DNA of 64,000 bases from Candidatus Bathyarchaeota archaeon (GTDB lineage Archaea; Thermoproteota; Bathyarchaeia; 40CM-2-53-6). Below the pieces are notes generated by a model that made no database searches, was not told the origin of the DNA, and was given only the letters and a program-made list of their open reading frames with translations. The stretch lies in NCBI GenBank assembly GCA_963783645.1, contig CAWAOH010000010.1, forward strand, positions 26,818 through 90,817. Direction: 5' to 3'. Both the position numbers and the translations under genes were made by a program. Of the stretch, positions 19,795-59,312 are shown one piece after another (position 1 is the first letter of the stretch; each line of letters opens with the position of its first letter).

Positions 19795-20488
19795 ATGGCT
19801 AATCTTGGGCAGCTCAAAGGAACAATGTGGACTACCGTTCTAATTACGTTAGTTATTTTCGTGGGCTTCATTATAGTCATCTCATTTTTCATAAGTTAGG
19901 CTGTCGGGCTTGAGATTTCACCGACTGCTATAATATTGGGCGCTTTGGGCCTTGCAATTATTTTCATGCTCATACAGTTTGCCATTAGCCCTTACATCGT
20001 TGCGGCTACTACCCACTTGCAGTATCTGAATCCGGGAGAGAACGCTTGGTTAGAGGGCACCGCATCAAAGCTAGCTCAACAAGCCGGTGTTAAAGCACCT
20101 CGCCTCGCAATCGTTCCAGATCGGACACCGAACGCGTTCGTATTCGGCAACTCCTCTAACAATATGACCCTCGCTGTAAACCAAGGCCTGCTTGATCAGC
20201 TGAATGAGGATGAGATTCAAGGTGTACTCGGTCATGAGATCGGTCACATTCGCCATAAGGATTCAATTATTATGACATTCATGTCAGCCGTCCCTCTCAT
20301 CGCATACGTCATTGTGCGTGCAGCTTTCGGGTTTCGCGTGTATAGTGGAAGCTGGCGTAGAGGGGAGCGCAAAAACGGAACTGTGTTCGTTATCCTGGCA
20401 GGACTGGTTGCGCTTGCAATATTTTATATCTCAACTCTTGGTACCTCCGCGAACAATTCGCTGACGTCTTCTCAGCCTACTTGACCCC
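19795..20488 (+). pseudogene. truncated, inactivated copy of the M48/HtpX-like peptidase gene
   Basis: Colinear with residues 1-~238 of 25658..26728. There is an in-frame TAG at 19897-19899 where the intact copy has Tyr (TAT), a non-3n deletion near 20440 shifts the frame, and similarity ends at ~20488 ('...FADVFSAYLT'). Confidence 0.75.
20038..20294 (+). repeat. 257-bp near-identical core shared (inverted) with 26229..26485
   Basis: Base-by-base comparison gives 255/257 identical, whereas the flanking htpX sequence is only ~65-70% identical. Confidence 0.9.
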
Positions 20489-25657: not shown

Positions 25658-26728
25658 TCAGGCATGTTCGTAAATGTTTGACGTCTGCAGCCCGCGGCTC
25701 GTAATTTCTTGGTCGATCTGCCTGAGCAAGAGTAGGCGTTTGTAGGTGGGGGGATGTGTTGCGAAAGCTTGATTCAGAGTGCCCCACCGGGACTTTGCCT
25801 CCTGCTCCATAGCCAGCTCAAGTTCATGCTCATCCAAGACTCCGTCCTTGTCCAGGTCGTACCGGTTGACGTGTTCCATGACCTGATTCATCTCTTGCTT
25901 CGCGAGAGCAGGGTCGGAAATGTAAAGCGCCCGGGCCCCGTGCGGTTCTTCGGAGCTGAGTGAGAGCCCATAAGTTATGCGTGCAAGCGCACTTTCCAAT
26001 TCCCTCGGAGCGCCTGTAAGGTACGCTGAGAAGACGTCTGCGTAGGACTCTCTCAAACGGCTTAATCGCAGTACGAGCAGTTGAGCAATGAAATAGACAA
26101 TGAGCGCGACTATTCCGGCGAGTATGATGTAGACTGCACCATTATCCCTGTTCCCCTTCCGGTTTCCACCCATCCCTCCATAATACCCGAACCCGAAGGC
26201 CATTCGAACAATTACGTAAGCGACGAGCGGGACGGCTGACATGAATGTCATAATAATTGAATCCTTGTGGCGAATGTGACCGATCTCATGACCGAGTACA
26301 CCTTGAATCTCATCCTCATTCAGCTGATCAAGCAGGCCTTGGTTTACAGCGAGGGTCATATTGTTAGAGGAGTTGCCGAATACGAACGCGTTCGGTGTCC
26401 GATCTGGAACGATTGCGAGGCGGGGTGCTTTAACACCGGCTTGTTGAGCTAGCTTTGATGCGGTGCCCTCTAACCAAGCGTTCTCGCCGGGTTGGAGGTA
26501 GCGCAGCCTGGTGCTCCACCGAACGATAGCAGGGCTGATTGCGAACTGAATGAGCATGAAGATTAGGGCGAGGATGAAAGCGCCGATTAGTATTGAGGCT
26601 GGGTCGAGTTGAAGATTTGTAGCATAACTGAAGAAGAACGAGACTACAACTATGAAACCGACGAAGATTACGAGAGTGATCAGGATCGTAAAGAACATCG
26701 TTCCCTTCAACTGAGTTAGGCTACCCAT
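25658..26728 (-). CDS. htpX: M48-family (HtpX-like) zinc metallopeptidase with an EF-hand-type loop in the C-terminal region
   Basis: TM segments, 'HEIGHIRH' (HExxH), 'SRLRESYAD', C-terminal 'THPPTYKRL'. Residues 291-302 'DLDKDGVLDEHE' fit the canonical EF-hand loop pattern. Confidence 0.8.
   Translation of the reverse strand: MGSLTQLKGTMFFTILITLVIFVGFIVVVSFFFSYATNLQLDPASILIGAFILALIFMLIQFAISPAIVRWSTRLRYLQPGENAWLEGTASKLAQQAGVKAPRLAIVPDRTPNAFVFGNSSNNMTLAVNQGLLDQLNEDEIQGVLGHEIGHIRHKDSIIMTFMSAVPLVAYVIVRMAFGFGYYGGMGGNRKGNRDNGAVYIILAGIVALIVYFIAQLLVLRLSRLRESYADVFSAYLTGAPRELESALARITYGLSLSSEEPHGARALYISDPALAKQEMNQVMEHVNRYDLDKDGVLDEHELELAMEQEAKSRWGTLNQAFATHPPTYKRLLLLRQIDQEITSRGLQTSNIYEHA
26229..26485 (-). 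repeat. inverted partner of 20038..20294 (255/257 identical)
   Basis: See 20038..20294. Confidence 0.9.
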
Positions 26729-26812: not shown

Positions 26813-27040
26813 TCACTCACTGAGGATCGTACCCGCTTCTGGCATCAAATCCTTGCACATTCCTCGAATCTCCGGCGAACATTCTCTGTCATGGGCGAGT
26901 ATCTTGAAATCTGGCGTAATCATGGGCGGAGGATCGAGTTTCGCGCATTCATTCGTGAAAGCCTCGTACAATTTTCTGAACTCATCAGACCATTGGTCTG
27001 GATGGAAGCATGGTCGTTTTCCATCTGCCGTTATCGTCAT
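26813..27040 (-). CDS. hypothetical small protein
   Basis: 75-aa ORF in an interval without a better candidate; no motif recognised. Confidence 0.3.
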   Translation of the reverse strand: MTITADGKRPCFHPDQWSDEFRKLYEAFTNECAKLDPPPMITPDFKILAHDRECSPEIRGMCKDLMPEAGTILSE

Positions 27041-27200: not shown

Positions 27201-27840
27201 TTACTTTTCGTCTGCTACGGAAGAGTTTAGGGTATCCCATGCGACTGTGACATGGTCAAATGGTGAGTGTTTGTAGTTCGGATCAGTCGTATTGACAATG
27301 ACCCTGACATGATCTTTGCCGAGTTTTTGGACAGCTTCGATGGCATCCGTCATTGTGAAATTTCCAATCTTCCAGTCCATGATGACATCGTCAAACTTAC
27401 TCATAGTTAGAGTAACATTAGATGTAATCCTTTGGGCGCCTACGTAGGCCTCTTGCAATGCAAATATGACTCTAGTGTCAGGGCAGATCAGTGGCGCATT
27501 GAACAACAGGATTCGATCGAAGAAATGCTCTGCTGAACAATCCTTCGCATAGCACAGCCCCACCGTTCCTCCAGCTGAATGCCCGAGAAGCGTAGGTTTC
27601 CTACCGTCTTGCGTTGCGTACTTTTTGGCATTGTACGAGATCATCATCTCATAATAGTCTGGAAATTCTGTACCGCTAATAGCAACAATTCTCCAATTGG
27701 CGGAAATTGCCTGTTGAATATTGCTGATAATCGTCATGCTGATCGAGTGGCAGCATCTGAATACCATTAGCAGTGATATAACCACCGCAAAGCAATATCA
27801 ATGTCCGACTTCCACCATCGTTACGCACCTCCACGCTCAT
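27201..27840 (-). CDS. alpha/beta-hydrolase-fold protein, probably frameshifted
   Basis: Nucleophile elbow 'GHSAGG'. An N-terminal strand 'MSVEVRNDGGSRTLILLCGG' (ATG 27840) is in a different frame from ORF 27201..27785. The two frames overlap open between ~27690 and 27785. Confidence 0.5.
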
Positions 27841-28193
27841 AACTGCGGACTTCCACGCTTTGACAGAACCAAGAAATATTATGCCTTGACTATAAACTTC
27901 GATCTACCCCTTTGGGTCAAGCGCCACATAGCACCGTGATTGAAGGGGATGTCGAAGTTAGTCTCACTAGAGGTTACCAAATAAGACCGACTGACCCGAG
28001 AGCAGATAGTGGAAGCGAGTAGAATTCGAGAAATCGCCCATCAAGAAAACCGAAGATGAACAAATGAATTTTCTATATCAGGAGGCAAGGAGGCTTTGGA
28101 GGCAAAAGCAGATATGATTTCAAAAAGTTCTTTAGAGTACGAATCGAGCAGAAGTCATTCGAGGCGAATGTCAAAATAATATGAAACCATTAA

Positions 28194-28221
28194 GTATCTA
28201 GTCTATATAACGAACGTTAAA
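28194..28221 (+). promoter_or_regulatory. composite promoter/operator: GTATCTAGTCTATATAA (shared with 25429) overlapping ATATAACGAACGTTAAA (identical to 31870..31886)
   Basis: Exact 17-nt identity 28205-28221 = 31870-31886. TATA-like 'TATATAA'. It lies 73 nt upstream of ATG 28294. Confidence 0.6.
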
Positions 28222-28293
28222 GAATAGTTCCTACGGCTTCAGCATCAACGAAGACAGGTGTGACAATTAGGTTTGACGCGACCGCCATGGACA

Positions 28294-29463
28294 ATGCGCA
28301 CAGATTATTCGGAAGCGCCCATTTTCGTTTGTTGGGAAACTACCAAAGCTTGTCTTCTGGCTTGCAGACATTGCAGGGCCAAAGCGATTCGAATCAGGCA
28401 GAGCGGAGAGCTTACCCACGCGCAAGGTTTGAAACTCATCGACCAGCTCGTTGAGTTTGGAGAACCATATCCAGCACTCTTACTCACTGGTGGAGATCCG
28501 CTGATGCGTCATGATTTCTTTGAACTTATCGAATATGCAAAGAGCCTTGGGATTTACGTGGCGGTAGCCGCCAGCGTTACACCGAGGTTGAACGAGACCT
28601 CAATCTCACGCATGAGAGATCTAGGAGTAGACATTATGTCAGTGAGTCTTGACGGAGCATTACCTGAAACTCATGATCGACTCAGAGGGATAAAAGGGAC
28701 CTGGAAGGCCACTATTGATGCACTTAGAATGGCGAGAGAGTTAGGCTTGCGGACTCAGACCAACACGACGGTGATGCGGAGTAACATCAACGAACTGGCC
28801 GACATCTTTCACATCGCGAAAGACAACGGGGCAGTTGCCTGGGAGGTTTTCTTCTTAATCCGAACCGGGCGAGGCGCGTCTATGGAAAGCCTCGATGCAT
28901 GTGAATGTGAAGAAGTCATGAACTTTCTCTACGATGCTGCGCTCTATGGGATTCCCGTGAGAACAGCTGAGGGTCCAAGCTTCAGACGAGTGCGTATTGA
29001 ACGAGAAAAGACCGTCAAAGAACCTTCAGGAGAGATCTATCGCAGGCTAATTGGCAGATTGCGAATGCTTGAAGGAATACCGGGGGGTTCACCCATGTTC
29101 AAATTATCTCACACAGCGGATGGGCGAGGGATATTGTTTGTCGGTCACAGGGGCGAAGTGTATCCGAGCGGCTTTTTGCCGGTTGACTGTGGCCGTGTTC
29201 CAAAAGATAATTTGCTTGAGATCTATCGTTCTCACCTATTTTTCAGGGCATTGCGAGATCCAGCTAGCCTCAAAGGAAGGTGTGGGATTTGTGAATACAA
29301 GTCTGTGTGTGGCGGTTCGAGGTCGCGAGCTTTCGCTGAGATGAATGACCCGTTCCAGGAAGATCCTATCTGCCCATACCTTCCTGCAGGTCACGGTGCC
29401 CAACAAGATCAGACTTGCTCCACTCAGACGTCTGGGGCAATCAAAAGTATACCCAATGAGTAG
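28294..29463 (+). CDS. radical SAM / SPASM-domain enzyme (AhbD/NirJ-like clade)
   Basis: 'WETTKACLLACRHCRA' (Cx3Cx2C), 'LLLTGGDPLMRHDFFELIEYA', 'SLDGALPETHDRLRGIKG', C-terminal SPASM 'LKGRCGICEYKSVCGGSRSRAF...DPICPY'. The ORF track starts at TTG 28273. Confidence 0.8.
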   Translation: MRTDYSEAPIFVCWETTKACLLACRHCRAKAIRIRQSGELTHAQGLKLIDQLVEFGEPYPALLLTGGDPLMRHDFFELIEYAKSLGIYVAVAASVTPRLNETSISRMRDLGVDIMSVSLDGALPETHDRLRGIKGTWKATIDALRMARELGLRTQTNTTVMRSNINELADIFHIAKDNGAVAWEVFFLIRTGRGASMESLDACECEEVMNFLYDAALYGIPVRTAEGPSFRRVRIEREKTVKEPSGEIYRRLIGRLRMLEGIPGGSPMFKLSHTADGRGILFVGHRGEVYPSGFLPVDCGRVPKDNLLEIYRSHLFFRALRDPASLKGRCGICEYKSVCGGSRSRAFAEMNDPFQEDPICPYLPAGHGAQQDQTCSTQTSGAIKSIPNE

Positions 29464-29529
29464 TCCTACATGGTGCATCGACTAGGTTGCCATCGAGTAT
29501 TCTTCTTCGGTCTCCGTTTCTGAGAAATG

Positions 29530-30345
29530 TCATGAATGGAAGAGAGCTGCTCCGTAAAGCAGGAAAAAGCCGAGTAGAACTGCGAGAGATATTCGAATCC
29601 ATTGCGAATAGGTTACTTCCTTCCCATTGTTCCCTTCGAATATTGGTCTTATTACTTGCAGTATCACGGAGAGTGCTGCTCCGCCTCCCATCGCAAAGAA
29701 GTAGGAGGAATCTATCGGAACGTAATAGGCTACAGCTTCACCAATTACCGACGGAATACCAAATGCCAGCCCCACAATTACGGTCTGCCACAGTTGCTTA
29801 CGAATCGACAAGTCCTGAGTTCTTGCCAAAGCAACAAAGACTACGATCACTATTGTTGATTCAAGCAGCTTGTGTAGGACGTAGGATAGGCCTCCACCAA
29901 CTCCGCCAATTGCATCTAGCACGCTAGTTGCCTGCGTACCCGCCGCTGTTCCTCCGAACTCCAATCCTTCACCGATTCCATGAATACTCATTCCGAGGCC
30001 GACGAGCATTGCTAGGAGAAGATGGAAGATGCTGGCTTTCGCCATGCTTTGTTTTCTTGGGCTTCGTCCACCAAGCAGAGCAACCAAAAGGAAACCCGTG
30101 ATGAAGAGCACAACGAGACCTGTCTGATGGAAGCCGAAGGCATATCCGTCATTGACACCCAGCTGTACTGCATCATTCATCGTATCGAAGAAGAACCAGA
30201 ACAGCAATCCAAGAGCATAGGCAGAGAAATAGCGAGTGTTAACTTGGGTGATATTACTGAGAGCGACCACGGAAAACATCCCAATGTAGATTGGGATAAA
30301 TGTCGCTAGCACGAATTCAATGAAAGATACGCTGAACTCTATCAT
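29530..30345 (-). CDS. polytopic membrane protein, ZIP-like divalent-metal permease (weak)
   Basis: ~8 TM segments. 'SIHGIGEGLEFG' and 'VLHKLLES' resemble the H-x-x-x-E-G motifs of ZIP/ZupT TM4/TM5. Confidence 0.4.
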   Translation of the reverse strand: MIEFSVSFIEFVLATFIPIYIGMFSVVALSNITQVNTRYFSAYALGLLFWFFFDTMNDAVQLGVNDGYAFGFHQTGLVVLFITGFLLVALLGGRSPRKQSMAKASIFHLLLAMLVGLGMSIHGIGEGLEFGGTAAGTQATSVLDAIGGVGGGLSYVLHKLLESTIVIVVFVALARTQDLSIRKQLWQTVIVGLAFGIPSVIGEAVAYYVPIDSSYFFAMGGGAALSVILQVIRPIFEGNNGKEVTYSQWIRISLAVLLGFFLLYGAALFHS

Positions 30346-30523
30346 GTTTCTCGCCGTCGCGCTGACGACGTCAGGTAAATGATAGCCTTTTTGGTACAGT
30401 CAAATGAGTATTGCAAGAATTTTAGACTGACTATCTGGTCTTCTCGGACACTTTGGCCAGGCGGAACATGTAAACGTTCTTCTGTTTGCATCCACATTAG
30501 ACGATTGTTCAAGTGTCTTTTCA

Positions 30524-30994
30524 ATGATTCGCTCGAAGAAAATGATCGTAGTGAGTGTTGTGATATTGCTGGTTGTTTCCCTTATCGTTATTGCGACTGG
30601 CGGCATTTTCAACTTGACTAGTCAGGCTTCCAATGCCCCTCCGTCAATCGTGGTCACAAAATCAACTTGCGATCGGCCACCTGGGTTCATTCTCATAATT
30701 GCTGACCTTTCAGGCTTCAATGACAGCATAGGTCACGGGGCACCTCTTCATCCATGGCCAGTTATTCGCATACAGAGGGGACAAATGGTCCGGTTTGTGG
30801 TGTGCAACCATGACACGACGCAACCTCATGGTTTTGCGATAAGGTATTACCTAGATGCTGGAATAGCGATGGCTCCTGGTGACGCATATCAGATGGTCTT
30901 CCCGGCAACTGAGACAGGTACCTTTGATATATTCTGCAACATCTTCTGTACGATTCACGTTTTCATGCGTGGTCAGCTAATTGTATCAGGCTGA
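30524..30994 (+). CDS. membrane-anchored type-1 (blue) copper protein, amicyanin/halocyanin-like cupredoxin
   Basis: N-terminal TM anchor. C-terminal 'FDIFCNIFCTIHVFMRGQLIV' compares with amicyanin 'CTPHPFMRGKVVV' (C-x2-H-x2-M), and there is an upstream His in 'QPHGFAI'. Confidence 0.6.
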   Translation: MIRSKKMIVVSVVILLVVSLIVIATGGIFNLTSQASNAPPSIVVTKSTCDRPPGFILIIADLSGFNDSIGHGAPLHPWPVIRIQRGQMVRFVVCNHDTTQPHGFAIRYYLDAGIAMAPGDAYQMVFPATETGTFDIFCNIFCTIHVFMRGQLIVSG

Positions 30995-31070
30995 TCGAAT
31001 AGGGACTACTAGTACCGAAGCATGCCAAGCAAACTGGCAGCACATCAAATGAATCGATGTTACGGGACAT

Positions 31071-31760
31071 TCAACGTGGTATGGGTGAAGTGAAGTATTT
31101 GAAAAGCCAGTACGGGACTAGAAAACCTTCGAAAACGAACATCATTATCATCATCGCTAAACCAAATTGGGCCTGTTGGGTAATCGGATAGATAGAATAG
31201 AAACGATTGTACCCTGCCCCAGATGTGACAAGCAGAACAACTCCAAAGATCCCCATAGCTTTACAACCCAATATCGCCGCCATCTTACGCGTCCTTCCGC
31301 TGAGAAAACCCGCTCCAATGAAAATCAGAATCCCAGCGAAAAGAAGCGACATGTGCATAATCACATGTAATCCGAAATTAAGCAAAGCAGAATCAAGAAC
31401 TGTGGGAACGTGCCAGTAAACAATTATCAATGCAGCCACAGTCAAGCTGGGAACTCCTCCCTTGTTTAACCTGCTGTTTAGTGAACCAAAGTCAGAGATC
31501 ACTTCAACTGATAGTAATTCCTGAAGCGAATAAGCCGCCAGGACGCCAGCCAACAGGAGCAGCAGGTCAGAAAACATGATGAAGACTTCCGGCGCCACGT
31601 TGAAGTTTGCCGTCAATGCCCAGTAAAGATAGTCGATGAGCTCAAAGGGCGGAAACATGGAAATCATGAGAGCGATACTCAAGGTAAGAGCCGTCAAACC
31701 ACGGATGAATTTATGCGTGACCGCGGCGTCGCTGAACTTGTCAGACCTTGACATCGCCAA
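31071..31760 (-). CDS. membrane protein, caa3-CtaG / DUF1404-like (copper-insertion factor-like)
   Basis: Seven hydrophobic segments. 'YWHVPTVLDSALLNFGLHVIMHMSLLFAGILIF' resembles the W-H-x-P...H-x3-H core of CtaG/DUF1404 proteins. Confidence 0.45.
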   Translation of the reverse strand: MAMSRSDKFSDAAVTHKFIRGLTALTLSIALMISMFPPFELIDYLYWALTANFNVAPEVFIMFSDLLLLLAGVLAAYSLQELLSVEVISDFGSLNSRLNKGGVPSLTVAALIIVYWHVPTVLDSALLNFGLHVIMHMSLLFAGILIFIGAGFLSGRTRKMAAILGCKAMGIFGVVLLVTSGAGYNRFYSIYPITQQAQFGLAMMIMMFVFEGFLVPYWLFKYFTSPIPR

Positions 31761-31869
31761 ACCCCCGAGATTGGTAGATCAGATCATGTAAATAGCTCGT
31801 TTGAATCGTCTTCCTGAATCTGCAATTTTCGCTATATTTGCCTCGGACAAAATATTCGAATAAATACTC

Positions 31870-31886
31870 ATATAACGAACGTTAAA
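31870..31886 (+). promoter_or_regulatory. ATATAACGAACGTTAAA box (identical to 28205..28221) in the CtaG-like/TetR divergent intergenic region
   Basis: Exact 17-nt identity; 33 nt upstream of ATG 31919. Confidence 0.6.
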
Positions 31887-31918
31887 TACACCAACTTTCA
31901 GCCACCACCAAGGAAGAG

Positions 31919-32408
31919 ATGAGATATCACGGCCTCACACCCCTCTTCTCAGCAACATATTCTAGATGTAGCAAAGGCACTCTTTACGAGGAAAGGATTC
32001 TCAAATGTTTCAATACGTGATATTTGTCGAGAGGCGCGTGTGACGGCTCCTACTGTCTATTATTATTTCAAAAACAAAGAGGCCCTTTTTGAGGCGGTTG
32101 TTCGCGAAACGATAACCATGCAGAGATTCACAACTCTCCTCAGCAGTGAATGTAAGAAGGCGAAAGATCCGAGCTCGCAAATTCGAACTTTTGTTCGCGT
32201 TTATCTTTTCTCTTTCCCGAGTAAACTGATTAACACAGGACTTTACCTTCGGGGTTCAACTCAGCTTGATGCTGTAGGCGCACAAACTCTGCTCAAAGAG
32301 CTAGCACATGTTGAATCACTGCTGGTGCGAATTATTCGCGACGGAATAAGCAGCGGGGATTTTGCGAAACTGACTCGCAAATGGCTTCAGGATGCCTCCT
32401 TGGAATGA
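31919..32408 (+). CDS. TetR-family transcriptional regulator, interrupted by a 1-nt frameshift near the 5' end
   Basis: HTH 'ILDVAKALFTRKGFSNVSIRDICREARVTAPTVYYYFKNKEALF' is in frame with ORF 32040..32408 but has no start of its own. ATG 31919 joins it ('MRYHGLTPSSQQHILD') if the C4 run at 31940-31943 is shortened by one. Confidence 0.7.
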
Positions 32409-32533
32409 TGAACCGATTCATCTTTCAAAGGATTCACTTCAGACGAAATTATAGGGCAGTTGAAGCGGCGTCGTATTTGTCGGATTTCTTTCTCAGGGCG
32501 ATGAAAGCAAAGGAGAATTAAGAGGTAGCCATT

Positions 32534-33451
32534 ATGCTGAAAACTCGCATACTTGTAGGCACTAGAGGAAGCCAACTTGCACTCGCGCAAACTAATCAAG
32601 TCATCGAGGAATTGAAACGGGCAGTACCGAGGCTGAAGTGTGAAGTCGTACCCATTCGAACTAAGGGCGACAATATGCATGAACTTGACACGTCCGTCGA
32701 AGGAAAAGGCATCTTTACCAAGGAAATCGAAGAGGCGTTGATCCAAGGCCGGGTCGACATTGCGGTTCACAGCATGAAGGACCTCTCCGTAGACCTGTCA
32801 GCTAACGTTACCATTGCAGCTGTCCCAAAGAGAGGAAACCCACATGATGTTCTGGTCTCGCGTGAGAAGAGGAGATTTTCACAGTTGCCATCCGGAGCGC
32901 GAGTCGGAACGAGTAGTCCGAGAAGGAAGGCGCAGCTATTGGCTGCTCGCGGAGACCTTGAAATTGTCGATATTCATGGGAATGTAGATACACGTTTCAG
33001 GAAACTTGCGAGCGGAGCTTATGACGCGATCGTAGTGGCGGCGGCGGGTCTGGAACGACTTCACCTGGATCGTAATGCCACAGAGGTTCTACCAACTAAT
33101 TTGATGCTCCCAGCAGTTGGGCAAGGTGCACTCGCAGTCCAGAGCAGAAAGGGAAATCAGGAGATTACGGAGTTGGTCATCAAGATTGATCATCCCATCA
33201 CAAGAAGCGAGATCGAGGCGGAGAGAGCTTTTGCTAAGAAGTTGGGAGCAAATTGTAGAACGCCTATAGCGGCGTACGCAAGATCTGATTCATCGAAGCT
33301 GACCATTGAAGGAATGGTTTCGTCTCCAAACGGACGAATGCTTATTCGAGGTCGATTAACTTCGAATAATCCAGATTCTAGCCAGATTGGAGAAGAACTG
33401 GCAAAAAACCTTCTAGACAAGGGAGCTGAGGCACTGTTGGAGGATTTGTGA
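32534..33451 (+). CDS. hemC: porphobilinogen deaminase (hydroxymethylbilane synthase)
   Basis: 'ILVGTRGSQLALAQTN', 'AVHSMKDL', 'VGTSSPRRKAQL', 'GNVDTR', 'GANCRTPIAAYA'. Confidence 0.9.
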   Translation: MLKTRILVGTRGSQLALAQTNQVIEELKRAVPRLKCEVVPIRTKGDNMHELDTSVEGKGIFTKEIEEALIQGRVDIAVHSMKDLSVDLSANVTIAAVPKRGNPHDVLVSREKRRFSQLPSGARVGTSSPRRKAQLLAARGDLEIVDIHGNVDTRFRKLASGAYDAIVVAAAGLERLHLDRNATEVLPTNLMLPAVGQGALAVQSRKGNQEITELVIKIDHPITRSEIEAERAFAKKLGANCRTPIAAYARSDSSKLTIEGMVSSPNGRMLIRGRLTSNNPDSSQIGEELAKNLLDKGAEALLEDL

Positions 33452-34235
33452 TGCAAGCAACCACAATGCCGCTTTCGGGTAAGCGAATACTAGTTACGCG
33501 ATCTGCAGGTCAGGCAATGAGTCTCTCGAAGAAGCTTCGGTATTTAGGAGCGATAACAATCGAAATTCCAACTATCGAAATTAGGCCTCCTCCAGATTTT
33601 GATCCAATTGACGATTCTATAAGAAATCTCAGCGGGTATGATTGGATAATATTCACGAGTGTCCATGCGGTTGATTTCTTTTTCCGACGAATGGGTATTC
33701 TACAAGTTCCTGTCTCTGCTCTAGGTCTTCTTAGAATCGCTGCAATAGGTTCGGCAACCTCATCCGCAATAGAGCGGGCTGGTAGAAAGCCTGACTATGT
33801 TCCTTCAGACTTTCTCTCTGAGCGTATCGCCATAGGTCTCGGTGAGTTACGGGGGAAGCGTGTTCTGCTGCCTCGGGCTGATATTGCCTCTAAGAATTTA
33901 CCGCTTCTATTGCGTGACAAAGGGGCATCTGTAGATGAGATCGTGGCCTACGAGACTGTCCCACCGCAAAATTGAACTTCGATAGATTGAGGGTAGTCCT
34001 CAATTCAGGTGTAGATATAGTGACTTTCACGAGCCCCTCGACAGTACGTAATTTTGCAAATGCAGTCGGACATACAGATGTCGGGAGATTTTTGAGTAAC
34101 GCAAGGGTAGTTTGCATTGGACCCGTTACAGCTGAAGCAGCGAGAGATCTAGGTATAAATGTGAATGTCGTTGCGAGACCTCACACAATAGATGCATTGG
34201 TGGAGGCAATTGTAAGTGACATCAGAAATCTATGA
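33448..34235 (+). CDS. hemD: uroporphyrinogen-III synthase, interrupted by a 1-nt frameshift (33448..33975 + 33972..34235)
   Basis: 'GKRILVTRSAGQA', 'DWIIFTSVHAV', 'VDIVTFTSPSTVRNF'. The frames rejoin ('ETVPPQKLNFDRL') if the A4 run at 33968-33971 is lengthened by one. Confidence 0.8.
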
Positions 34236-35226
34236 AACCTCGAACAGGTTCACATTCACGCAGAGACCGCGTCGACTACGACGATTAGAGGCTCTGCGTC
34301 GTCTTGTAAGAGAAACGAGGTTGTCAAGTTCTGATCTGGTGTATCCAATGTTTGTTGACGCTAGGATTAGCTCGCGAGAACCGATTCCTCCAATGCCAGG
34401 TATCTACAAATTTGCTCTCTCCGAATTAGAGGAAGAGGCATCCGAAATCGCATCGTTGAAGATACCTGCAATTCTACTTTTCGGACTACCAGAGAACAAG
34501 GACCCGATGGCAAGCGAAGCCTACGCAGCCAATGGGATCGTGCAACAAGCGATACACCTCATAAAGAAATCCGCGCCTGAACTGGTGGTAATATCTGATG
34601 TTTGTCTTTGTCAGTACACTGACCATGGTCATTGCGGACTTGTGAGAGACGGGACAATAGACAATGATGAGTCTTTAGAACTTCTCTCGAAAATCGCTGT
34701 CTCACATGCAAAGGCAGGCGCTGACATTGTGGGACCAAGCGCGATGATGGATGGCCAGGTCAAAGCGATCCGAAATGGATTAGATGAAAGTGAGCTGAGT
34801 GACACAGCAATCATGGCATATTCAGCTAAATTCGCTTCGTCGTTTTACGGACCTTTCAGAGAAGCAGCAGAGTCAACCCCTCTCTGGGGAGACAGGCGCA
34901 CATACCAAATGGATCCCGCGAACAAAAAGGAAGCCATTCGTGAAATCGGTTTGGATATTGAGGAGGGTGCGGATATCGTGATGGTAAAGCCTGCTCTAGG
35001 ATATCTTGACATACTAAGTCAAGCCAGAAGCCAATTCAATACACCACTCGCAGCGTTCAATGTGAGCGGAGAATATGCCATGATCAAAGCTGCAGGAGGG
35101 AGAGGATGGATAGATGAAAGAGCAGTCGCGATGGAAGTACTAACTTCAATCAAGCGTGCTGGTGCAGACATCATAATAACGTATTTCGCGAAAACGACTG
35201 CCCGCCAATTGCAGGAACGAACATGA
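34216..35226 (+). CDS. hemB: porphobilinogen synthase (ALA dehydratase), Zn-type
   Basis: 'RPRRLRR', 'LVYPMFV', Cys triad 'DVCLCQYTDHGHCG', 'VMVKPALGYLDI', 'VSGEYAMIKAA'. Confidence 0.9.
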   Translation: MTSEIYETSNRFTFTQRPRRLRRLEALRRLVRETRLSSSDLVYPMFVDARISSREPIPPMPGIYKFALSELEEEASEIASLKIPAILLFGLPENKDPMASEAYAANGIVQQAIHLIKKSAPELVVISDVCLCQYTDHGHCGLVRDGTIDNDESLELLSKIAVSHAKAGADIVGPSAMMDGQVKAIRNGLDESELSDTAIMAYSAKFASSFYGPFREAAESTPLWGDRRTYQMDPANKKEAIREIGLDIEEGADIVMVKPALGYLDILSQARSQFNTPLAAFNVSGEYAMIKAAGGRGWIDERAVAMEVLTSIKRAGADIIITYFAKTTARQLQERT

Positions 35227-35948
35227 TGAAAACCCAGGTATCATCATTGCCAAATCAGGTTCAAGCTACTGAGCGGGAATTCCTGAAATACACCTTCTTC
35301 AAGGTCGATCCGCAATGGAGACGGCTAGACGAAAGCCAAAGGAAGGCGAGCAAAGAGCAATTTGCTCTACTCGTGGAGGATTTCGGGAAAAACAATCTTG
35401 TTAAACCATATTCTCTCGTAGGTATCCGTGGCGATGCTGACTTTCTCCTTTGGAACATCAGCAGAGGTCTGGAAGAACTTCGATCATTCATCTCTAAACT
35501 TCTGAAATCAGAACTCGGGAAATATCTGACTCTGCCCTATTCGTATCTCGCCATTACTCGGAAGTCAGAGTATTTGGGGAGCCATGAGCACGCTGGACAA
35601 GATGGAGTAACTTTACAGCTTCCAGGAGGTTCTAGATACCTCTTCGTTTATCCTTTCATAAAGAAACGCAAGTGGTATTTCTTGCCTCATGAAGAAAGAA
35701 CATTGATGATGACGCATCATTTCAAGATTGGACACAAATATCCGTCAGTAAGAATCCACACCGGATACTCCTTCGGACTCGATGACCAAGAATTTGTACT
35801 AGCTTTCGAGACGGACGAACCTACAGATTTCTCAGAACTTGTAATGGAGTTGAGAGGCAGCGAAGCTAGTCGATACACGGCGCTTGAAACGCCAATATTC
35901 ACATGTGTACAGATGAAGGTTAGAGAGATTCTGGATCTGCTCGGTTAA
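35223..35948 (+). CDS. hemQ: chlorite-dismutase-family protein, coproheme decarboxylase-like (HemQ/ChdC)
   Basis: 'YTFFKVDPQWRRL', 'ADFLLWNIS', 'YLFVYPFIKKRKWYFLP', 'HFKIGHKYP', plus its position inside the heme cluster. Confidence 0.75.
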   Translation: MMKTQVSSLPNQVQATEREFLKYTFFKVDPQWRRLDESQRKASKEQFALLVEDFGKNNLVKPYSLVGIRGDADFLLWNISRGLEELRSFISKLLKSELGKYLTLPYSYLAITRKSEYLGSHEHAGQDGVTLQLPGGSRYLFVYPFIKKRKWYFLPHEERTLMMTHHFKIGHKYPSVRIHTGYSFGLDDQEFVLAFETDEPTDFSELVMELRGSEASRYTALETPIFTCVQMKVREILDLLG

Positions 35949-35967
35949 CCTCCATTTGTGATTTAAC

Positions 35968-36246
35968 TTGAAGATCAAGAATTCCAAGGAGCTCTACGAG
36001 AGGGCGTCAAATACTCTCGTCGGAGGAGCTGACAGTCCAGTCAGCGTCTTCAGAGCCGTTGGGGGAACTCCTCTATTTATTCGAAGAGCTCACGGGTCAA
36101 AGATTGAAGACGAAGACGGAAACTCTTACATTGATTTCGTTTGTTCATGGGGAGCGGTAATTCTCGGCTCGGCTCATCCTAAGCTGTGCGCTAAGGCTGC
36201 GAAAGGCGGATTTCGAATGGTAAGGACTAAAGGCGCTAACAGTTGA
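35968..36246 (+). pseudogene. hemL: glutamate-1-semialdehyde 2,1-aminomutase, N-terminal ~75-80 residues only
   Basis: 'LVGGADSPVSVFRAVGGTPLFIRRAHGSKIEDEDGNSYIDFVCSWGAVILGSAHPKL' matches the HemL N-terminus. The reading frame ends after 92 codons, overlapping the hemE start, whereas full-length HemL is ~430 aa. Confidence 0.7.
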
Positions 36247-37277
36247 ATGACCGATTCATCAAGGCATGTCGCAGAGAGAGATCTGACGGTACTCCTGTCT
36301 GGTTCATGCGTCAAGCTGGACGCTTTCTACCGGAATATAGGAAGATACGAGAAAAGCACAGTCTGATGGACATTTGCAAGGACCCTGATTTATGCGCGGA
36401 AGTCTCAACGCTACCAGTTGACGTCCTAGACGTCGATGCAGCCATACTGTTTGCTGATATCATGCTCCCATTGGAAGGCATGGGTGTCAAATTCGAAATC
36501 ACTGATGGAGTTGGCCCAGTTATCCTGAGTTCACTGAACGACTTTCAAAGCGTGAACTCATTAACCAATCTGGATCCTGATTCTGATGTACCTTTTGTCA
36601 TGGAAGCAATTTCTGCAACAAAGAAGAAGCTCGACTCGCGCGTACCATTGATCGGATTCTGTGGAGCACCATTCACACTAGCGAGTTACCTGATCGAAGG
36701 ACATGCAACAAGGGATTATGTCGAAACTAAGAAACTAATGTACAAGGACCCCAAGACTTGGCATCTATTGATGGACAAGCTTTCAACTTCGATGGGGCTT
36801 TACTTGAGAGCCCAAGTGAACGCAGGCGTCGATGCCGTTCAGTTATTTGACAGTTGGGTTGGCTGCCTAAGCCCCTCGGATTATCACAAGTATGCACTAC
36901 CCTATTCACGTAGAGTATTCAGTTATCTTAAGGACCTGACGACTCCTTGTATTCATTTTGGGACCGGAACCGCTGCCATACTGGACGATATGAAACAGGC
37001 TGGAGGCGATGTTTTCAGCATTGATTGGCGGATTCCAATAGATGTTGCATGGCAAAAGCTAGGATATGATGTAGCCATTCAAGGGAACCTGGACCCAGCT
37101 GTGCTTTTGGCGGATAGCAACTTAGTCAAAGCTCAAGTTGCTGACATCTTGATGAGAGTCGGAAACAAGCCAGGACATATCTTCAACCTAGGCCACGGGA
37201 TACTGCCGGACACGCCACAAGACAATGTCAGACAAGTCGTGGAGTTTGTTCATGAACAGACTAAAGCGAGAGCTTAG
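36243..37277 (+). CDS. hemE: uroporphyrinogen decarboxylase
   Basis: 'NDRFIKACRRERSDGTPVWFMRQAGRFLPEYR', 'FDSW', 'NLGHGI'. TTG start overlapping the hemL-stub stop. Confidence 0.9.
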   Translation: MNDRFIKACRRERSDGTPVWFMRQAGRFLPEYRKIREKHSLMDICKDPDLCAEVSTLPVDVLDVDAAILFADIMLPLEGMGVKFEITDGVGPVILSSLNDFQSVNSLTNLDPDSDVPFVMEAISATKKKLDSRVPLIGFCGAPFTLASYLIEGHATRDYVETKKLMYKDPKTWHLLMDKLSTSMGLYLRAQVNAGVDAVQLFDSWVGCLSPSDYHKYALPYSRRVFSYLKDLTTPCIHFGTGTAAILDDMKQAGGDVFSIDWRIPIDVAWQKLGYDVAIQGNLDPAVLLADSNLVKAQVADILMRVGNKPGHIFNLGHGILPDTPQDNVRQVVEFVHEQTKARA

Positions 37278-37280
37278 GAC

Positions 37281-38201
37281 ATGTCATCAGATTTTGATCA
37301 TGCTGCGATTCTTCTAATGGCATATGGAACACCGTTGTCAGAGGACGAAATAGAACCCTATCTTGCTGATATCCGGCGAGGTCGAAAACCTACCTTAGGG
37401 CAAGTCGAGGATCTGAAGAGACGCTATAGGGAAATTGGAGGGTATTCGCCACTTCTGGAAATCACAAAAGCTCAAGCATTCGAACTGGAGCAGCAACTTC
37501 ACTCGAAGAGGATTCGAGTGCAGGTTTACCACGGAATGAAGCATTGGCACCCATACATCTCAGAGACGGTGCAGGAGATTTTGAAGGTTGGAGTTCACAG
37601 GATTGTGGGTTTGGTACTTGCGCCTCATTATTCGCGCATGAGTATTGGTGGGTACAGAGAGTCACTTCAAATGGCTCTTATGAATTCGAAGAATATTCGG
37701 GTCGACTTCGTGGAAAGCTGGTACGATAATTCACTCTTTCAAGATGCCGTGGCGGAGAAAGTGAGTAATGCATTTGAGAAGTTCCCACCAGACGCGGATA
37801 TCTACGTCCTTTTTACTGCACATAGTCTACCGGAGCGAATAATCGCCGAGGGTGATCCTTATCCTATCCAGCTTCTTGAGTCCTGCAAGGCAGTTGCGAG
37901 ACTCACTAATATCGAAAGATGGTCATTCGCATACCAAAGTGCTGGTCAAACAGGAGAAAAATGGTTAGGACCTGATATTCTAGAGGTATTGGGAAAGATT
38001 GCCGCCAAGTCGAACGTGCTTGTGGTCCCTATTGGATTTGTTACTGATCATCTCGAGATTCTCTACGATATCGATGTGGAAGCTCAGGCATTAGCAGAAT
38101 CTCATAAAATCATCCTGCATCGTACCGAGTCCTTGAACACCAGTCCCAAGTTCATAGCCGCTTTGGCTGACATAGTCGGCAATCAGCTAACTTCAATCTA
38201 A
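37281..38201 (+). CDS. hemH: ferrochelatase (coproporphyrin ferrochelatase-like)
   Basis: 'AILLMAYGTP', 'GGYSPL', 'FTAHSLPE', 'VVPIGFVTDHLEILYDID'. Confidence 0.85.
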   Translation: MSSDFDHAAILLMAYGTPLSEDEIEPYLADIRRGRKPTLGQVEDLKRRYREIGGYSPLLEITKAQAFELEQQLHSKRIRVQVYHGMKHWHPYISETVQEILKVGVHRIVGLVLAPHYSRMSIGGYRESLQMALMNSKNIRVDFVESWYDNSLFQDAVAEKVSNAFEKFPPDADIYVLFTAHSLPERIIAEGDPYPIQLLESCKAVARLTNIERWSFAYQSAGQTGEKWLGPDILEVLGKIAAKSNVLVVPIGFVTDHLEILYDIDVEAQALAESHKIILHRTESLNTSPKFIAALADIVGNQLTSI

Positions 38202-45226: not shown

Positions 45227-45874
45227 TTACTGGTACTTTAAGGGATCAACCATTCCTATCTGTTTGAATGCGTCGAGACGATTGCGGCAGCCTCGACATT
45301 TCCTGCACGGAATTTCAACGTCTTCGTAGCAGCTCCATGTGAGCCCGAGAGGAACCTTGAGTTCCAAGGCTAGCTTAAGCACCTCAACTTTGCTGTGGTT
45401 GATTAGAGGGTTGACGATTTGGGTTGATGTTCCATCTGCACCTGTTCGAGTTCCGATCTTCAACAGCTCATTCATTCTCTGAATGAAGGTGGGTGTTGCG
45501 TCGGGCAGTTCTCTTGTGTCGTCGGCGTTGGAACCGAAAATTATCGTGTCGATGCCAAGCGTTTCGGCGTAGGCGGCTGCGATTCCGTAGAAGATGGTGT
45601 TCCTTGCGGGCACGTAAGCTGAGGTTACGTTGCTTGGTTGTATAGGATGATATCGGGTTTGGATGTCCTTGTAGAAGGGAAGAGATACGGTGAAATGCTC
45701 CTTCACCTTGGCTGCGTTGGCCAGTGATTTTGATGCCTTAGCCTCCTGGTAGCTGGCTTGTGCGTACAGTATGTTGATTGAGTAGATGCTTGGTGTTTGT
45801 TGTTCTGCCCAGTAGAGAGCCGTGGCAGAGTCAATTCCGCCAGATAATAGGACGATTGCACTCTTCAAACTCAT
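45227..45874 (-). CDS. queC: 7-cyano-7-deazaguanine synthase
   Basis: 'AIVLLSGGIDSATALYWA' PP-loop and C-terminal Zn cluster 'SCYE...CRKCRGCRNR'. The internal ATG (45874) is preferred. Confidence 0.85.
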   Translation of the reverse strand: MSLKSAIVLLSGGIDSATALYWAEQQTPSIYSINILYAQASYQEAKASKSLANAAKVKEHFTVSLPFYKDIQTRYHPIQPSNVTSAYVPARNTIFYGIAAAYAETLGIDTIIFGSNADDTRELPDATPTFIQRMNELLKIGTRTGADGTSTQIVNPLINHSKVEVLKLALELKVPLGLTWSCYEDVEIPCRKCRGCRNRLDAFKQIGMVDPLKYQ

Positions 45875-45986
45875 CCAATCGTCAGTACCTGCCACGATGC
45901 AATAAGCAGCTATGCCCACGCGCTCTTTACAGACAACGCAGACCGGAATCGTTCCTTATTGAGACTGGGAACGTTGTTTTGAATTT

Positions 45987-45998
45987 CGTTCCGGAACG
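45987..45998. promoter_or_regulatory. perfect 12-bp palindrome CGTTCCGGAACG flanked by two GGAACGTT words
   Basis: Read directly. GGAACGTT occurs at 45968-45975 and 45993-46000. It lies 70-125 nt upstream of queC. Confidence 0.35.
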
Positions 45999-46118
45999 TT
46001 TCGAAATGAAGTAACATCTTGCTGTTTCGGAACACATTCTGAAACGATGCGAATAAGCCGAATGAATAGATACAGGAGAAGGGACGGGTGGGGCTGGGTT
46101 ACAAGACCAGCCGCAAGG

Positions 46119-55534: not shown

Positions 55535-56203
55535 TTACGTACCTGTCATGTAGAAACTAAAAGGCGCATTGTTATCTACTATTGTAAAGTTGGCCCCCAT
55601 GGGAAAGTTGGCCGGAGGATAGGTGACCCCAGGAAAGTTGACCTGAGGAAATCCAAGTGAATAAGACGCCGGATAGGAGTAGCTGTAGTACCCGTAATTG
55701 TAGAGATATTGACCGCCCCATGAGCCAGTGTAGCTATAATGGTAAATCGTACCGTATCCTTGACTGGCTAATGTGCATAGCCAATAGACTCCTGGAGTGC
55801 TGATCGTAAGATAATCGGATGGTGCGAGCTGCCATGTTTCCCAAGCAGGTCCGTAGGTTTCCCTAACCTGAAGGCAATATCCGTTCTGCGTAGCAGCAAC
55901 AAGTTTCTGACCGTAAGGACTTCCATCACCGTTGTCTGCGTATATCCCGAACTTAATGCACTGGCTCCCGTCAGATCCAGTATAACTCATGTACAACGAA
56001 ACTGACTGCATAACGGTTGGATGACTCACAGTGATTTTAGTAAGCGCGACAACATACTGTTGCACAAGCGTACTCGTTATTGGTTCAATGGCTGTATCCC
56101 CGTAGTTGGTTGATGCAAAAACGGATTGCGAAGCGATCAATGTAACTGCTGCCAGAATGAGCAGCACTGCAACCCCGCACCTTCTCAACTCTCTTGCATT
56201 CAT
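55535..56203 (-). CDS. secreted protein: beta-rich domain plus Tyr/Gly/Ser-rich C-terminal region
   Basis: Signal-peptide-like 'RRCGVAVLLILAAVTLIASQSVFAS'. C-terminus 'YHYSYTGSWGGQYLYNYGYYSYSYPASYSLGFP'. No family assigned. Confidence 0.5.
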   Translation of the reverse strand: MNARELRRCGVAVLLILAAVTLIASQSVFASTNYGDTAIEPITSTLVQQYVVALTKITVSHPTVMQSVSLYMSYTGSDGSQCIKFGIYADNGDGSPYGQKLVAATQNGYCLQVRETYGPAWETWQLAPSDYLTISTPGVYWLCTLASQGYGTIYHYSYTGSWGGQYLYNYGYYSYSYPASYSLGFPQVNFPGVTYPPANFPMGANFTIVDNNAPFSFYMTGT

Positions 56204-56245: not shown

Positions 56246-56295
56246 TTAACGTTCAACAACAAGTATATTCATTAACGTTCAATAACTTAACGTTC
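56246..56295 (-). promoter_or_regulatory. three copies of TTAACGTTCA (56246, 56272, 56287) in a divergent promoter region
   Basis: Read directly. Each is the reverse complement of the GAACGTTAA core of the 28205/31870 boxes, i.e. in the same orientation relative to the downstream minus-strand gene (start 56203). Confidence 0.55.
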
Positions 56296-57408: not shown

Positions 57409-59312
57409 ATGTCCGAACATTATTCAGCTGATCAAATCCAAGTATTGGATGACTTGGAGGCTGTTCGAAAAAGGCCTGCGATGTACATTGGCAGCACCGA
57501 CATTCGTGGCCTTCATCACCTTGTATTTGAAGTTGTTGACAACTCAATCGACGAGGCGCTTGGAGGATTCTGTAAGAATATCAAAGTAACACTGATCCAG
57601 GATGGATCAGTAACAGTGCGGACGATGGGCGAGGCATTCCGGTCGAGACACATGTTCAAACTGGCAGACCGGCATTAGAAGTTGTCATGACTATGCTACA
57701 TGCCGGAGGAAAGTTCGACCACAAGACGTACCAAGTTTCAGGAGGTCTTCATGGAATCGGTGTGTCAGCGGTCAACGCTCTCAGCGAATGGCTTGAGACT
57801 GAGGTGCACCTGAAGGGGCATTCCTTCAAACAGCGATATGAGCGAGGAGTACCAGTGACTCCAGTCCAAGAAATCGGTGCGAGCGATGATCACGGAACAA
57901 TAGTCAGTTTCAAACCCGACGCTCAAATATTCGAAGACATAAAGTTCGACAACAAAATCATTCTAGGCAGACTCAGAGAACTTGCCTTCCTTACGGATGG
58001 ACTCGCTATCACCTTCACGGATCAGAGAGTAACTCCACCTAAGTCTCGAAGTTTCAAATATCAAGGTGGTATCAGAGAGTTCATAACGTATCTCAACGAA
58101 TCGAAGAATACCCTTCATGACGACGTGGTTCACGTTTCAGGAAGCAGGACAGACGTCCGAGTAGATTGTGCATTTCAATACACAGACGATTATTCATGGA
58201 GTATCCACACGTTCGCAAACAACATCAACACACGTGAAGGCGGATCGCATCTTGTCGGTTTGAAGGCCGCGTTGACGCGCGCGATCACCGATTATGCCTC
58301 TGGACACGAGCTTATCGATGAAGAGAAACTGAAGATTCAAGGCGACGATGTCCGTGAGGGACTAACTGCTGTCTTGAGTGTGAGATTACCGAATCCGCAA
58401 TTTGAAGGTCAGACAAAAGGAAGACTCGGCAACAGCGAGATCAGAGGAATCGTTGAATCAGTTCTATATGACGGGTTGAAAACCTACTTTTCAGAGAAAC
58501 CAACCGTCGCCAAAACTATCGTGCAACGGACAGCAGAGACAGCAAGAGCAAGAGTTGCAGCCAGAGAGGCCAAAGAACTCGTCCGCAAGAAAACTTCACT
58601 GGAAGGTGTAACGCTTCCAGGAAAATTGGCTGACTGCCAGATTCATGATCCAGAAAAAACTGAACTCTTCATAGTAGAAGGAGATTCAGCAGGTGGAAGC
58701 GCCAAACAAGCACGAGATCGACGAATACAAGCAATTTTGCCCTTGCGCGGTAAGATTCTGAATGTGGAGAAACACGGATTCAGTCGTATTCTCGATAACA
58801 ATGAGATACGTGCACTAGTAACCGCAATTGGATCAGGGATCGGAGACGCTTTCGACCTGAACGGTCTGCGGTACGCCAAAATCGTTCTCCTTACTGACGC
58901 GGATGTCGATGGTGCACATATCCGGACACTTCTTCTGACTTTTCTCTATCGCCACATGCCGCAACTTATTGAAGCTGGTAAAGTCTTCATCGCGCAGCCT
59001 CCTCTCTACCGTATACGAAAAGGTGACAAGATTTTCAATGCTATGAGCGAGAAAGAGCGGAAACGGATTATCGAACAGGAACTCAAGGGTAAACCAGACC
59101 TCGTGCAGAGATTCAAAGGGTTGGGCGAGATGAACCCCAGCGAGTTATGGGAAACAACCATGAACCCTCTCTCTCGCTCCTTGCTCAATGTCACAGTCGA
59201 CGATGCTGCGGAAGCAGACAAGGTGTTCTCCACGTTAATGGGAGATGTTGTCGAACCAAGGCGCCAATTCATCCAAGAGAACGCTGACGAAGTAGATTGG
59301 CTCGATATTTGA
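57409..59312 (+). CDS. gyrB: DNA gyrase subunit B, interrupted by a 1-nt frameshift (57409..57678 + 57687..59312)
   Basis: '[11 protein letters not shown]', '[14 protein letters not shown]'. After a -1 shift at ~57616-57621 it reads '[34 protein letters not shown]', then '[11 protein letters not shown]', '[11 protein letters not shown]', '[12 protein letters not shown]'. Confidence 0.9.

Follow-up and report, generated by a model that had tools for sequence, protein, structure and literature searches.

A sequence of 17 nucleotides (nt), ATATAACGAACGTTAAA, occurs twice in a 64-kb stretch of contig CAWAOH010000010.1 from a Candidatus Bathyarchaeota archaeon (positions 26,818 to 90,817; hereafter the window), once ahead of a gene for a radical S-adenosylmethionine (rSAM) protein and once ahead of a gene for a TetR-family regulator followed by heme-biosynthesis genes. 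The locus raises a simple question: is the repeat a coincidence, a well-conserved piece of promoter, or the site at which the neighboring regulator acts? The evidence presented here makes it probable that the TetR protein encoded at 31919-32521 uses the box as its operator; this protein would be an autoregulated repressor of a coproporphyrin-type heme operon whose promoter the operator overlaps. A first-pass annotation of the window had proposed a shared promoter/operator module of the adjacent TetR protein, with autoregulation and control of the rSAM gene, and the comparison of related genomes argues for this proposal.

Structure of the box

The two identical copies (28205-28221 and 31870-31886, both on the + strand) were confirmed as annotated, and no further copy of ATATAACGAACGTTAAA was found in the 64-kb window when up to three mismatches were allowed. 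The identity is confined to the 17 nt: the 28.2-kb copy lies between agtct and gaatag and the 31.9-kb copy between tactc and tacacc. Since the flanks are unlike, a recent segmental duplication was rejected as the origin of the two boxes. The annotation had also held that an exact 17-mer match is not expected by chance, which overstates the case, because at least one repeated exact 17-mer was present in 43% of 64-kb sequences simulated with a second-order Markov model of the window. Two other lone repeats of 18-19 nt in the window (33345/41456 and 53120/60481) look like chance. The significance of the box lies in its position and its conservation across species, not in the bare repetition of a 17-mer.

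A 20-bp imperfect dyad makes up the conserved block; it consists of TATATAACGA followed by ACGTTAAATA, is symmetric at 8 of 10 positions and has the core TAACG-AA-CGTTA. The ATATAA noted in the annotation as TATA-like is indeed there, but it is not a separate segment: it belongs to one arm of the palindrome (TATATAA), and the opposite arm, TTAAATA, is equally TATA-like. The two bases upstream of the TATA-like element are unconserved across relatives. The two central bases of the dyad also vary, AA being replaced by AG in five tetR-proximal sites and in distant relatives, as would be expected of a spacer between the half-sites TAACG and CGTTA. The box is thus a dyad-symmetric site in the range of ~12-20 bp that stands upstream of both tetR and the rSAM gene, as a TetR-type operator would. 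Box 1 ends 51 nt before the rSAM start; Box 2 ends 32 nt before ATG 31919 and heads both tetR and the heme operon. A search of the window for additional operators, with AACGNNCGTT or with the 12-mer at two mismatches, returned only the two boxes and the half-site-like repeats at 56.2 kb described below.

Conservation in related genomes

Another important question is whether the box has been kept in other species and whether it accompanies the regulator. We addressed it with a scan that was anchored on proteins, blind to the motif and limited to one genome per species. The scan covered 24 archaeal loci, all from peat and soil metagenome-assembled genomes (MAGs) labelled Bathyarchaeia, Nitrososphaerales or Thaumarchaeota, and ~29 bacterial loci with rSAM relatives, mostly from Spirochaetota. 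The exact 17-mer was present upstream of the orthologous rSAM gene in 13 species, and two more carried it with a single mismatch. In these 15 nonredundant species, in which the rSAM proteins are 68-83% identical, an 18-nt block, TATATAACGAACGTTAAA, is essentially invariant. When the upstream regions were anchored on the box, the mean pairwise identity was 0.91 over a 22-nt block versus 0.29-0.31 in the 39-nt flanks, which are unalignable. The gap between the box and the start codon ranges from 35 to 67 nt across species, and a conserved leader is absent.

The conservation of the box follows the presence of the regulator. All tetR-containing loci (15 of 15) have the box with at most one mismatch, while in the archaeal loci without tetR (L006, L008, L014, L015, L018-L021 and L045) it is missing or degenerate. 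The bacterial rSAM loci of the protein-anchored set, including all those of Spirochaetota, have neither tetR nor the box. In four of the tetR-less archaeal loci (L006, L008, L015 and L020), a palindrome, CCTAAG-N2-4-CTTAGG, is found directly upstream of a degenerate box, TTAACGAGYGTTAG, ~30-60 nt from the rSAM start; it may be bound by another regulator.

The usual gene order in the relatives is box-rSAM-tetR-(hemA)-hemC-hemD-hemB-chdC-uroD-cpfC. A tetR orthologue directly follows the rSAM gene in 12 relatives, and the order after tetR is the same in L005, L007, L009, L012, L016 and L041. Only in the window and in L001 and L002 are the rSAM gene and tetR apart (3.6-4 kb), and tetR then has its own second box; in L003, L004 and L016, a second box lies between adjacent rSAM and tetR genes. 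The tetR orthologues of L001, L002, L004 and L016 all have a box upstream, and either tetR or hemA, when separated from the rSAM gene, has its own box in the relatives. The content of the interval differs: in L001 and L002 it holds genes for a LarA-like protein and a 3-hydroxyacyl-CoA dehydrogenase, in the window (29530-31760) it encodes a membrane protein of 271 aa, a cupredoxin and a DUF1404 protein, and most relatives have no gene there. The suggestion of the annotation that the CtaG-like/copper genes of this interval belong to the regulon found no support, as they stand between rSAM and tetR only in the lineage of the window; the divergent DUF1404 gene may be regulated in that lineage alone.

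One additional piece of evidence was provided by a scan of a metagenome collection for the exact 17-mer, which gave at least 127 occurrences on at least 120 contigs. Among the 127 matches listed, 63 lie upstream of an rSAM orthologue, 13 upstream of a TetR orthologue and three upstream of hemA, which encodes glutamyl-tRNA reductase (L107, L118 and L143); with up to two mismatches, 24 of the sites listed precede tetR. Every one of the 79 archaeal sites listed lies on the coding strand with a start codon 30-200 nt downstream, and in every listed case with an archaeal context the box heads a heme-biosynthesis transcription unit. The regulon predicted in the annotation is supported for the rSAM gene and tetR, and the heme-biosynthesis operon and hemA, which it missed, have to be added to the prediction. 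The remaining matches listed comprise 44 in unrelated contexts, 22 of which lie within long open frames, and three next to bacterial TetR homologues. The idea that all nonarchaeal matches are due to chance was partly rejected on account of these last three (L127, L122 and L088).

A clostridial TetR family with the same core

The three bacterial loci were recognized among the metagenome 17-mer matches, and L174, L175/L176 and L177/L178 were fetched by protein identity. L127 is a low-GC bacterial contig in which tetR stands behind a perfect sigma-70 promoter, TTGACA-17-TATAAT, followed 2 nt later by TCTAACGAACGTTAAA; after tetR come a terminator and a second site, TATATAACGAACGTTAAA, before a gene for a cysteine-rich protein of 151 aa. 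TetR proteins of the L127 type are abundant in Clostridia and related anaerobes. In five distinct loci (L127, L174, L175/L176, L177/L178 and L122), the tetR promoter has a -10 hexamer that is followed, at a distance of 3-9 nt, by an exact copy of the 12-bp core TAACGAACGTTA, and a second exact copy precedes the next gene. The tetR promoters of L127 and L174 match the sigma-70 consensus at 12 of 12 positions. L088 includes only the end of the tetR gene, with the exact 17-mer after it.

The clostridial family resembles the archaeal system in its identical 12-bp core, in the orientation of the core and in the presence of two sites per locus, one at the promoter of tetR and one at the next gene. 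The clostridial and archaeal TetR proteins are only 29% identical overall; what they have in common is most of helix 2 and, in the recognition helix, the motif P-x-x-YYY[FY]K-x-K. The C-terminal domains, in contrast, differ, and C154, M158, R161, H168 and R171, which are invariant in the archaeal proteins, are replaced. The next gene also differs, as its product is either an Rce1-like protease or a small cysteine-rich protein that matches nothing in Pfam, and not a heme enzyme, and the clostridial sites, unlike the archaeal ones, follow a sigma-70 -10 box. The bacterial site is placed as a repressor site would be. We consider this pairing the strongest argument that TetR, and not an unlinked factor, would be the protein that reads the box.

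The TetR protein and its reading frame

The N-terminal helix-turn-helix (HTH) of the frame beginning at 31923 matched PF00440 (TetR_N) with 68.3 bits (cut-off 24) over residues 13-59. An AlphaFold2 model of an orthologue, P0004 (83% identical), had a predicted local distance difference test value of 86 and showed a TetR fold of 10 helices with an all-helical C-terminal domain. Foldseek searches with this model returned TetR structures with template-modeling scores of 0.6-0.75, which are generic, and a sequence search of the PDB gave distant TetR proteins only, with Mce3R and PfmR as the best of the low-scoring matches. Residues Y90, N100, Y104, R106, C154, M158, R161, H168 and R171 of the C-terminal domain are archaeal-specific invariants; speculatively, they would suit a tetrapyrrole with propionate groups.

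The start of the gene is unusual. ATG 31919, given as the start in the annotation, is +1 out of frame with respect to the HTH (TGA 31920-31922), and the next in-frame ATG, GTG or TTG is GTG 32040, which lies within the HTH. The same start region is present in L147, a metagenome contig 99.5% identical to the window, and in L096 (about 96%). A sequencing error was therefore rejected as the cause of this N-terminal frame problem, since it is common to three independent assemblies. Because the substitutions between the window and L096 in the TetR frame are synonymous in seven cases and nonsynonymous in one, the frame seems to be translated, which could occur via a near-cognate start (ATC 31926 or ACG 31929) or an early +1 shift.

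Relative to L147, which has an extra C and an intact frame, the window also carries a 1-nt deletion in tetR near 32364. Restoring the missing base gives a TetR protein of ~199 aa, with the stop codon 12 nt before hemC; the orthologues have 194-204 aa. Apparent frameshifts also split hemD (33448-33975 / 33972-34235) and gyrB (57409-57678 / 57687-59312), and the pattern suggests that the three indels are errors of this assembly.

The rSAM gene and the heme operon

The features discussed are collected in Table 1.

Table 1 Positions of the boxes and of the putative regulator, rSAM gene and heme operon in the window
Feature	Position	Strand	Description
Box 1	28204..28223	+	20-bp imperfect palindrome TATATAACGA / ACGTTAAAGA; 17-mer 28205-28221; 12-bp core TAACGAACGTTA 28208-28219
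rSAM/SPASM gene	28273..29463	+	TIGR04053 family, AhbD-like; probable start TTG 28273; Shine-Dalgarno-like AGGTG at 28256
Box 2	31869..31888	+	CATATAACGA / ACGTTAAATA; 17-mer 31870-31886; core 31873-31884
TetR-family regulator gene	31919..32521	+	HTH frame from 31923; window-specific 1-nt deletion near 32364; corrected stop TAA 32519-32521
Heme operon downstream of tetR	32534..38201	+	hemC, hemD (split), hemB, ChdC/HemQ-like, hemL remnant, uroD, ferrochelatase; assigned by Pfam matches

The rSAM protein passes the NCBIfam equivalog model TIGR04053 with 464 bits (cut-off 395). The next-best model, for AhbD heme b synthase (TIGR04545), gave 273 bits, under its cut-off of 500, so that by this test the protein is classed as AhbD-like and not as AhbD. 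The gene most likely begins at TTG 28273 and not at ATG 28294 as annotated, since the orthologues all begin with M-T-[RK]-P-P-W-T. A 306-bp segment upstream of Box 1 (27701-28006) is missing from the otherwise 99.5% identical L147, and no flanking repeats were seen around it. Bacterial MAGs, mostly of Spirochaetota (L022-L044 and L051-L053), contain TIGR04053 rSAM genes whose products are 60-63% identical, and in the bacterial loci inspected (e.g., L036) the rSAM gene is the first in an rSAM-hemA-hemC-hemD-hemB operon. These operons tie the TIGR04053 family to heme synthesis and suggest transfer between bacteria and these archaea.

The heme genes downstream of tetR abut or overlap, and the set found in the window is, as predicted from its protein families, that of the coproporphyrin-dependent heme pathway. 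A remnant of hemL (Aminotran_3), comprising a 92-aa N-terminal part (35968-36246), lies between chdC and uroD; at this position L012 has a full hemL and L005 has nothing. A search for hemA in the window found none.

Proposed mechanism and alternative explanations

The box has a defined sequence and symmetry, is conserved, is exclusively associated with these genes and occurs together with TetR in both bacteria and archaea. What we infer in the following scheme is that the protein physically binds the DNA, that it represses, which sequence serves as the TATA element and what the ligand is. A TetR dimer would bind the 20-bp dyad through the half-sites TAACG and CGTTA with their 2-base spacing. 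Because the dyad holds the only TATA-like sequence of the promoter, the bound protein would keep TBP, TFB and RNA polymerase from assembling and so repress transcription. Box 1 would govern the AhbD-like rSAM gene, and Box 2 would govern tetR together with hemC-hemD-hemB-chdC-uroD-cpfC; as Box 2 heads both tetR and the heme genes, the regulator would be autoregulated and would set the expression of the whole coproporphyrin-type pathway. The hemA gene, located elsewhere in the genome, would be controlled through a further box like those that precede it in relatives. A small molecule bound at the C-terminal domain would release TetR from the DNA; our guess is a tetrapyrrole of the heme pathway.

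Several observations weigh against this scheme. The tetR copy of the window looks damaged by the deletion, even though the near-identical L147 is intact, and in three independent assemblies the gene lacks a canonical in-frame start codon. The species that contain TetR may form one clade, and the instances of co-occurrence would then not be independent of each other. In GC-rich relatives whose locus lacks tetR, a sequence akin to the box, TTAACGAGYGTTAG, is still kept ~30 nt before the rSAM start; for this reason, the conservation could stem in part from a promoter role, or from a TetR gene at another place in the genome. The upstream regions of the window genes gave no clear TATA pattern when searched for a promoter consensus, in part owing to uncertain start codons, and the term repressor depends on a TATA assignment that is itself interpretative. 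Finally, the fold search with the TetR model returned generic TetR matches only and offered no clue to the ligand.

Could the box then be only an unusually conserved core promoter, read by general factors or by an unlinked regulator, with the targets of TetR elsewhere? Both of its arms, TATATAA and TTAAATA, do resemble archaeal TATA boxes, and the related AT-rich sequence kept by the tetR-less relatives lies ~30 nt before the rSAM start. Core promoters, however, do not remain invariant over 18 nt at ~70% protein identity with randomized flanks, and the best-conserved part of the box is the G/C-containing CGAACG. Moreover, the exact box is lost just where tetR is absent, and the same 12-mer lies downstream of bacterial sigma-70 -10 boxes beside TetR homologues, a setting in which a TATA role is impossible; we therefore hold this explanation to be quite unlikely. 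A role of the box in RNA, as a leader structure, riboswitch-like element or terminator, or an origin as the remnant of a small mobile repeat might be suspected from its palindromic nature and from those relatives in which it separates rSAM from tetR, a place suited to a terminator. Such explanations are highly improbable: the folding energies of the boxes with their leaders equal those of shuffled sequences (z = 0.09 and -0.07), the dyad would leave a loop of 2 nt, an Rfam scan of 27-33 kb gave no match, and the leader is unconserved at a variable distance of 35-67 nt to the start codon. A mobile repeat is further contradicted by the finding of two copies only in 64 kb, with neither repeated flanks nor target-site duplications.

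An alternative of a different kind accepts that TetR binds the box and makes it an activator or dual regulator, for instance one that recruits TBP/TFB to a weak promoter in response to a heme precursor or a redox signal. End-product feedback on a biosynthetic pathway does need co-repressor or activator logic and not classical TetR induction, and FadR_Sa stimulates the TBP/TFB interaction at its own gene (PMC6449355). Against this stand the bacterial homologous systems, in which the operator lies over the start site of a promoter with a perfect consensus and thus has a repressor design, and the fact that the box covers the only TATA-like sequence. Nearly all characterized TetR proteins are repressors. 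We consider activation unlikely and retain TetR as a probable repressor acting on its own operator.

A wider reading, which we offer as a tentative possibility, joins these elements. With this protein, a transcriptional regulator of heme biosynthesis would have been identified in Archaea for the first time; it would sense a pathway tetrapyrrole (heme, coproheme or coproporphyrin), or redox state or oxygen, via Cys154/Met158/His168 together with Arg161/Arg171, and would bring the oxygen-independent rSAM step into line with the ChdC route, which depends on peroxide. The part of the protein that reads DNA would, together with the operator, constitute a module common to bacteria and archaea.

Comparison with known systems

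A TetR repressor acting on a palindromic operator is a textbook mechanism, and the proposed circuit would operate in the manner of classical autoregulated TetR repressors. To our knowledge, no transcriptional regulator of heme synthesis has been described in Archaea. The closest archaeal precedent is FadR_Sa (Saci_1107) of Sulfolobus acidocaldarius, a TetR protein whose semi-palindromic sites mediate repression and include an autoregulatory one (PMC6449355). It likewise represses a local metabolic gene cluster via a handful of sites, one of them at its own gene; it differs in that it acts on fatty-acid metabolism, has an acyl-CoA ligand and recognizes an unrelated operator sequence. The FadR_Sa sites are mostly far upstream of the promoters, with the autoregulatory site downstream of the start, whereas the sites described here overlap a TATA-like element and the target is heme synthesis.

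Among operators, the closest belongs to PaaR (TTHA0973) from Thermus thermophilus, another member of the TetR family, which binds CNAACGNNCGTTNG (PMC6651687). Its half-sites are the same, CNAACG NN CGTTNG, or AACnAACGTTnGTT as determined by REPSA, and it is an autoregulated local repressor. PaaR is nevertheless bacterial, has a phenylacetate regulon and phenylacetyl-CoA as a ligand, and differs in the outer operator positions; no close kinship between the proteins was seen. Heme-sensing TetR regulators are known from Firmicutes, where HrtR, HatR and FhtR are autoregulated via palindromic operators (PMC6303022, PMC7858072). In contrast to the system proposed here, these bacterial proteins control heme efflux pumps and not biosynthesis. 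HrtR was not among the sequence or fold matches of the archaeal TetR, and heme binding by the archaeal protein is a guess.

Little is known about how prokaryotes in general regulate heme synthesis, and some organisms that use the coproporphyrin pathway also have AhbD (PMC13564367); the AhbD-like gene found here fits such an occurrence. A literature search for the operator AACGAACGTT returned primer sequences only, and a search for TIGR04053 returned nothing. The results thus point to a precise regulator-operator pair with a small predicted regulon (rSAM, tetR-hemCDB-chdC-uroD-cpfC and hemA) in uncultured peat and soil archaea, which have, by their predicted genes, a coproporphyrin-type pathway and not the usual archaeal siroheme route. 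The uncharacterized rSAM family TIGR04053 becomes firmly linked to heme synthesis, and the operator, with 18 nt invariant across species and a 12-bp core kept across domains, is usable as a metagenome marker of the regulon.

Other repeats in the window

The first-pass annotation had connected the box with repeats at 56.2 kb through a reverse-strand 9-mer, TTAACGTTC. This 9-mer is indeed present in both boxes and three times at 56246-56295, its five matches in the window comparing with 0.49 expected. The connection itself does not survive comparison with relatives, in which the 9-mer and its CG are lost, while the TetR box is invariant at similar divergence. The repeats at 56246-56295 are three direct copies of TGAACGTTAA[GT] on the - strand, upstream of ATATAT and a gene for a 222-aa secreted protein (55535-56203, - strand). 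In L179, L180 and L182 (protein identity 68-83%), the three repeats are kept as TTRAAYRTTAAK, for example TTAATGTTAAG, just upstream of C[TA]ATAT and the gene for the 222-aa secreted protein. They match the TetR dyad only in a half-site-like manner, and they constitute a separate regulatory array that probably serves another factor.

Repeated AACGTTCC and GGAACG motifs (tcgaaACGTTCCGGAACGaaa...AACGTTCC...GGAACG) occur at 45920-46009, upstream of a gene on the - strand (45227-45919), and are possibly another operator. The window also contains a near-exact inverted duplication of ~257 bp (20038-20294 / 26229-26485), whose copies lie inside an open reading frame on the + strand (19936-20484) and inside an M48 peptidase gene on the - strand (25658-26728).

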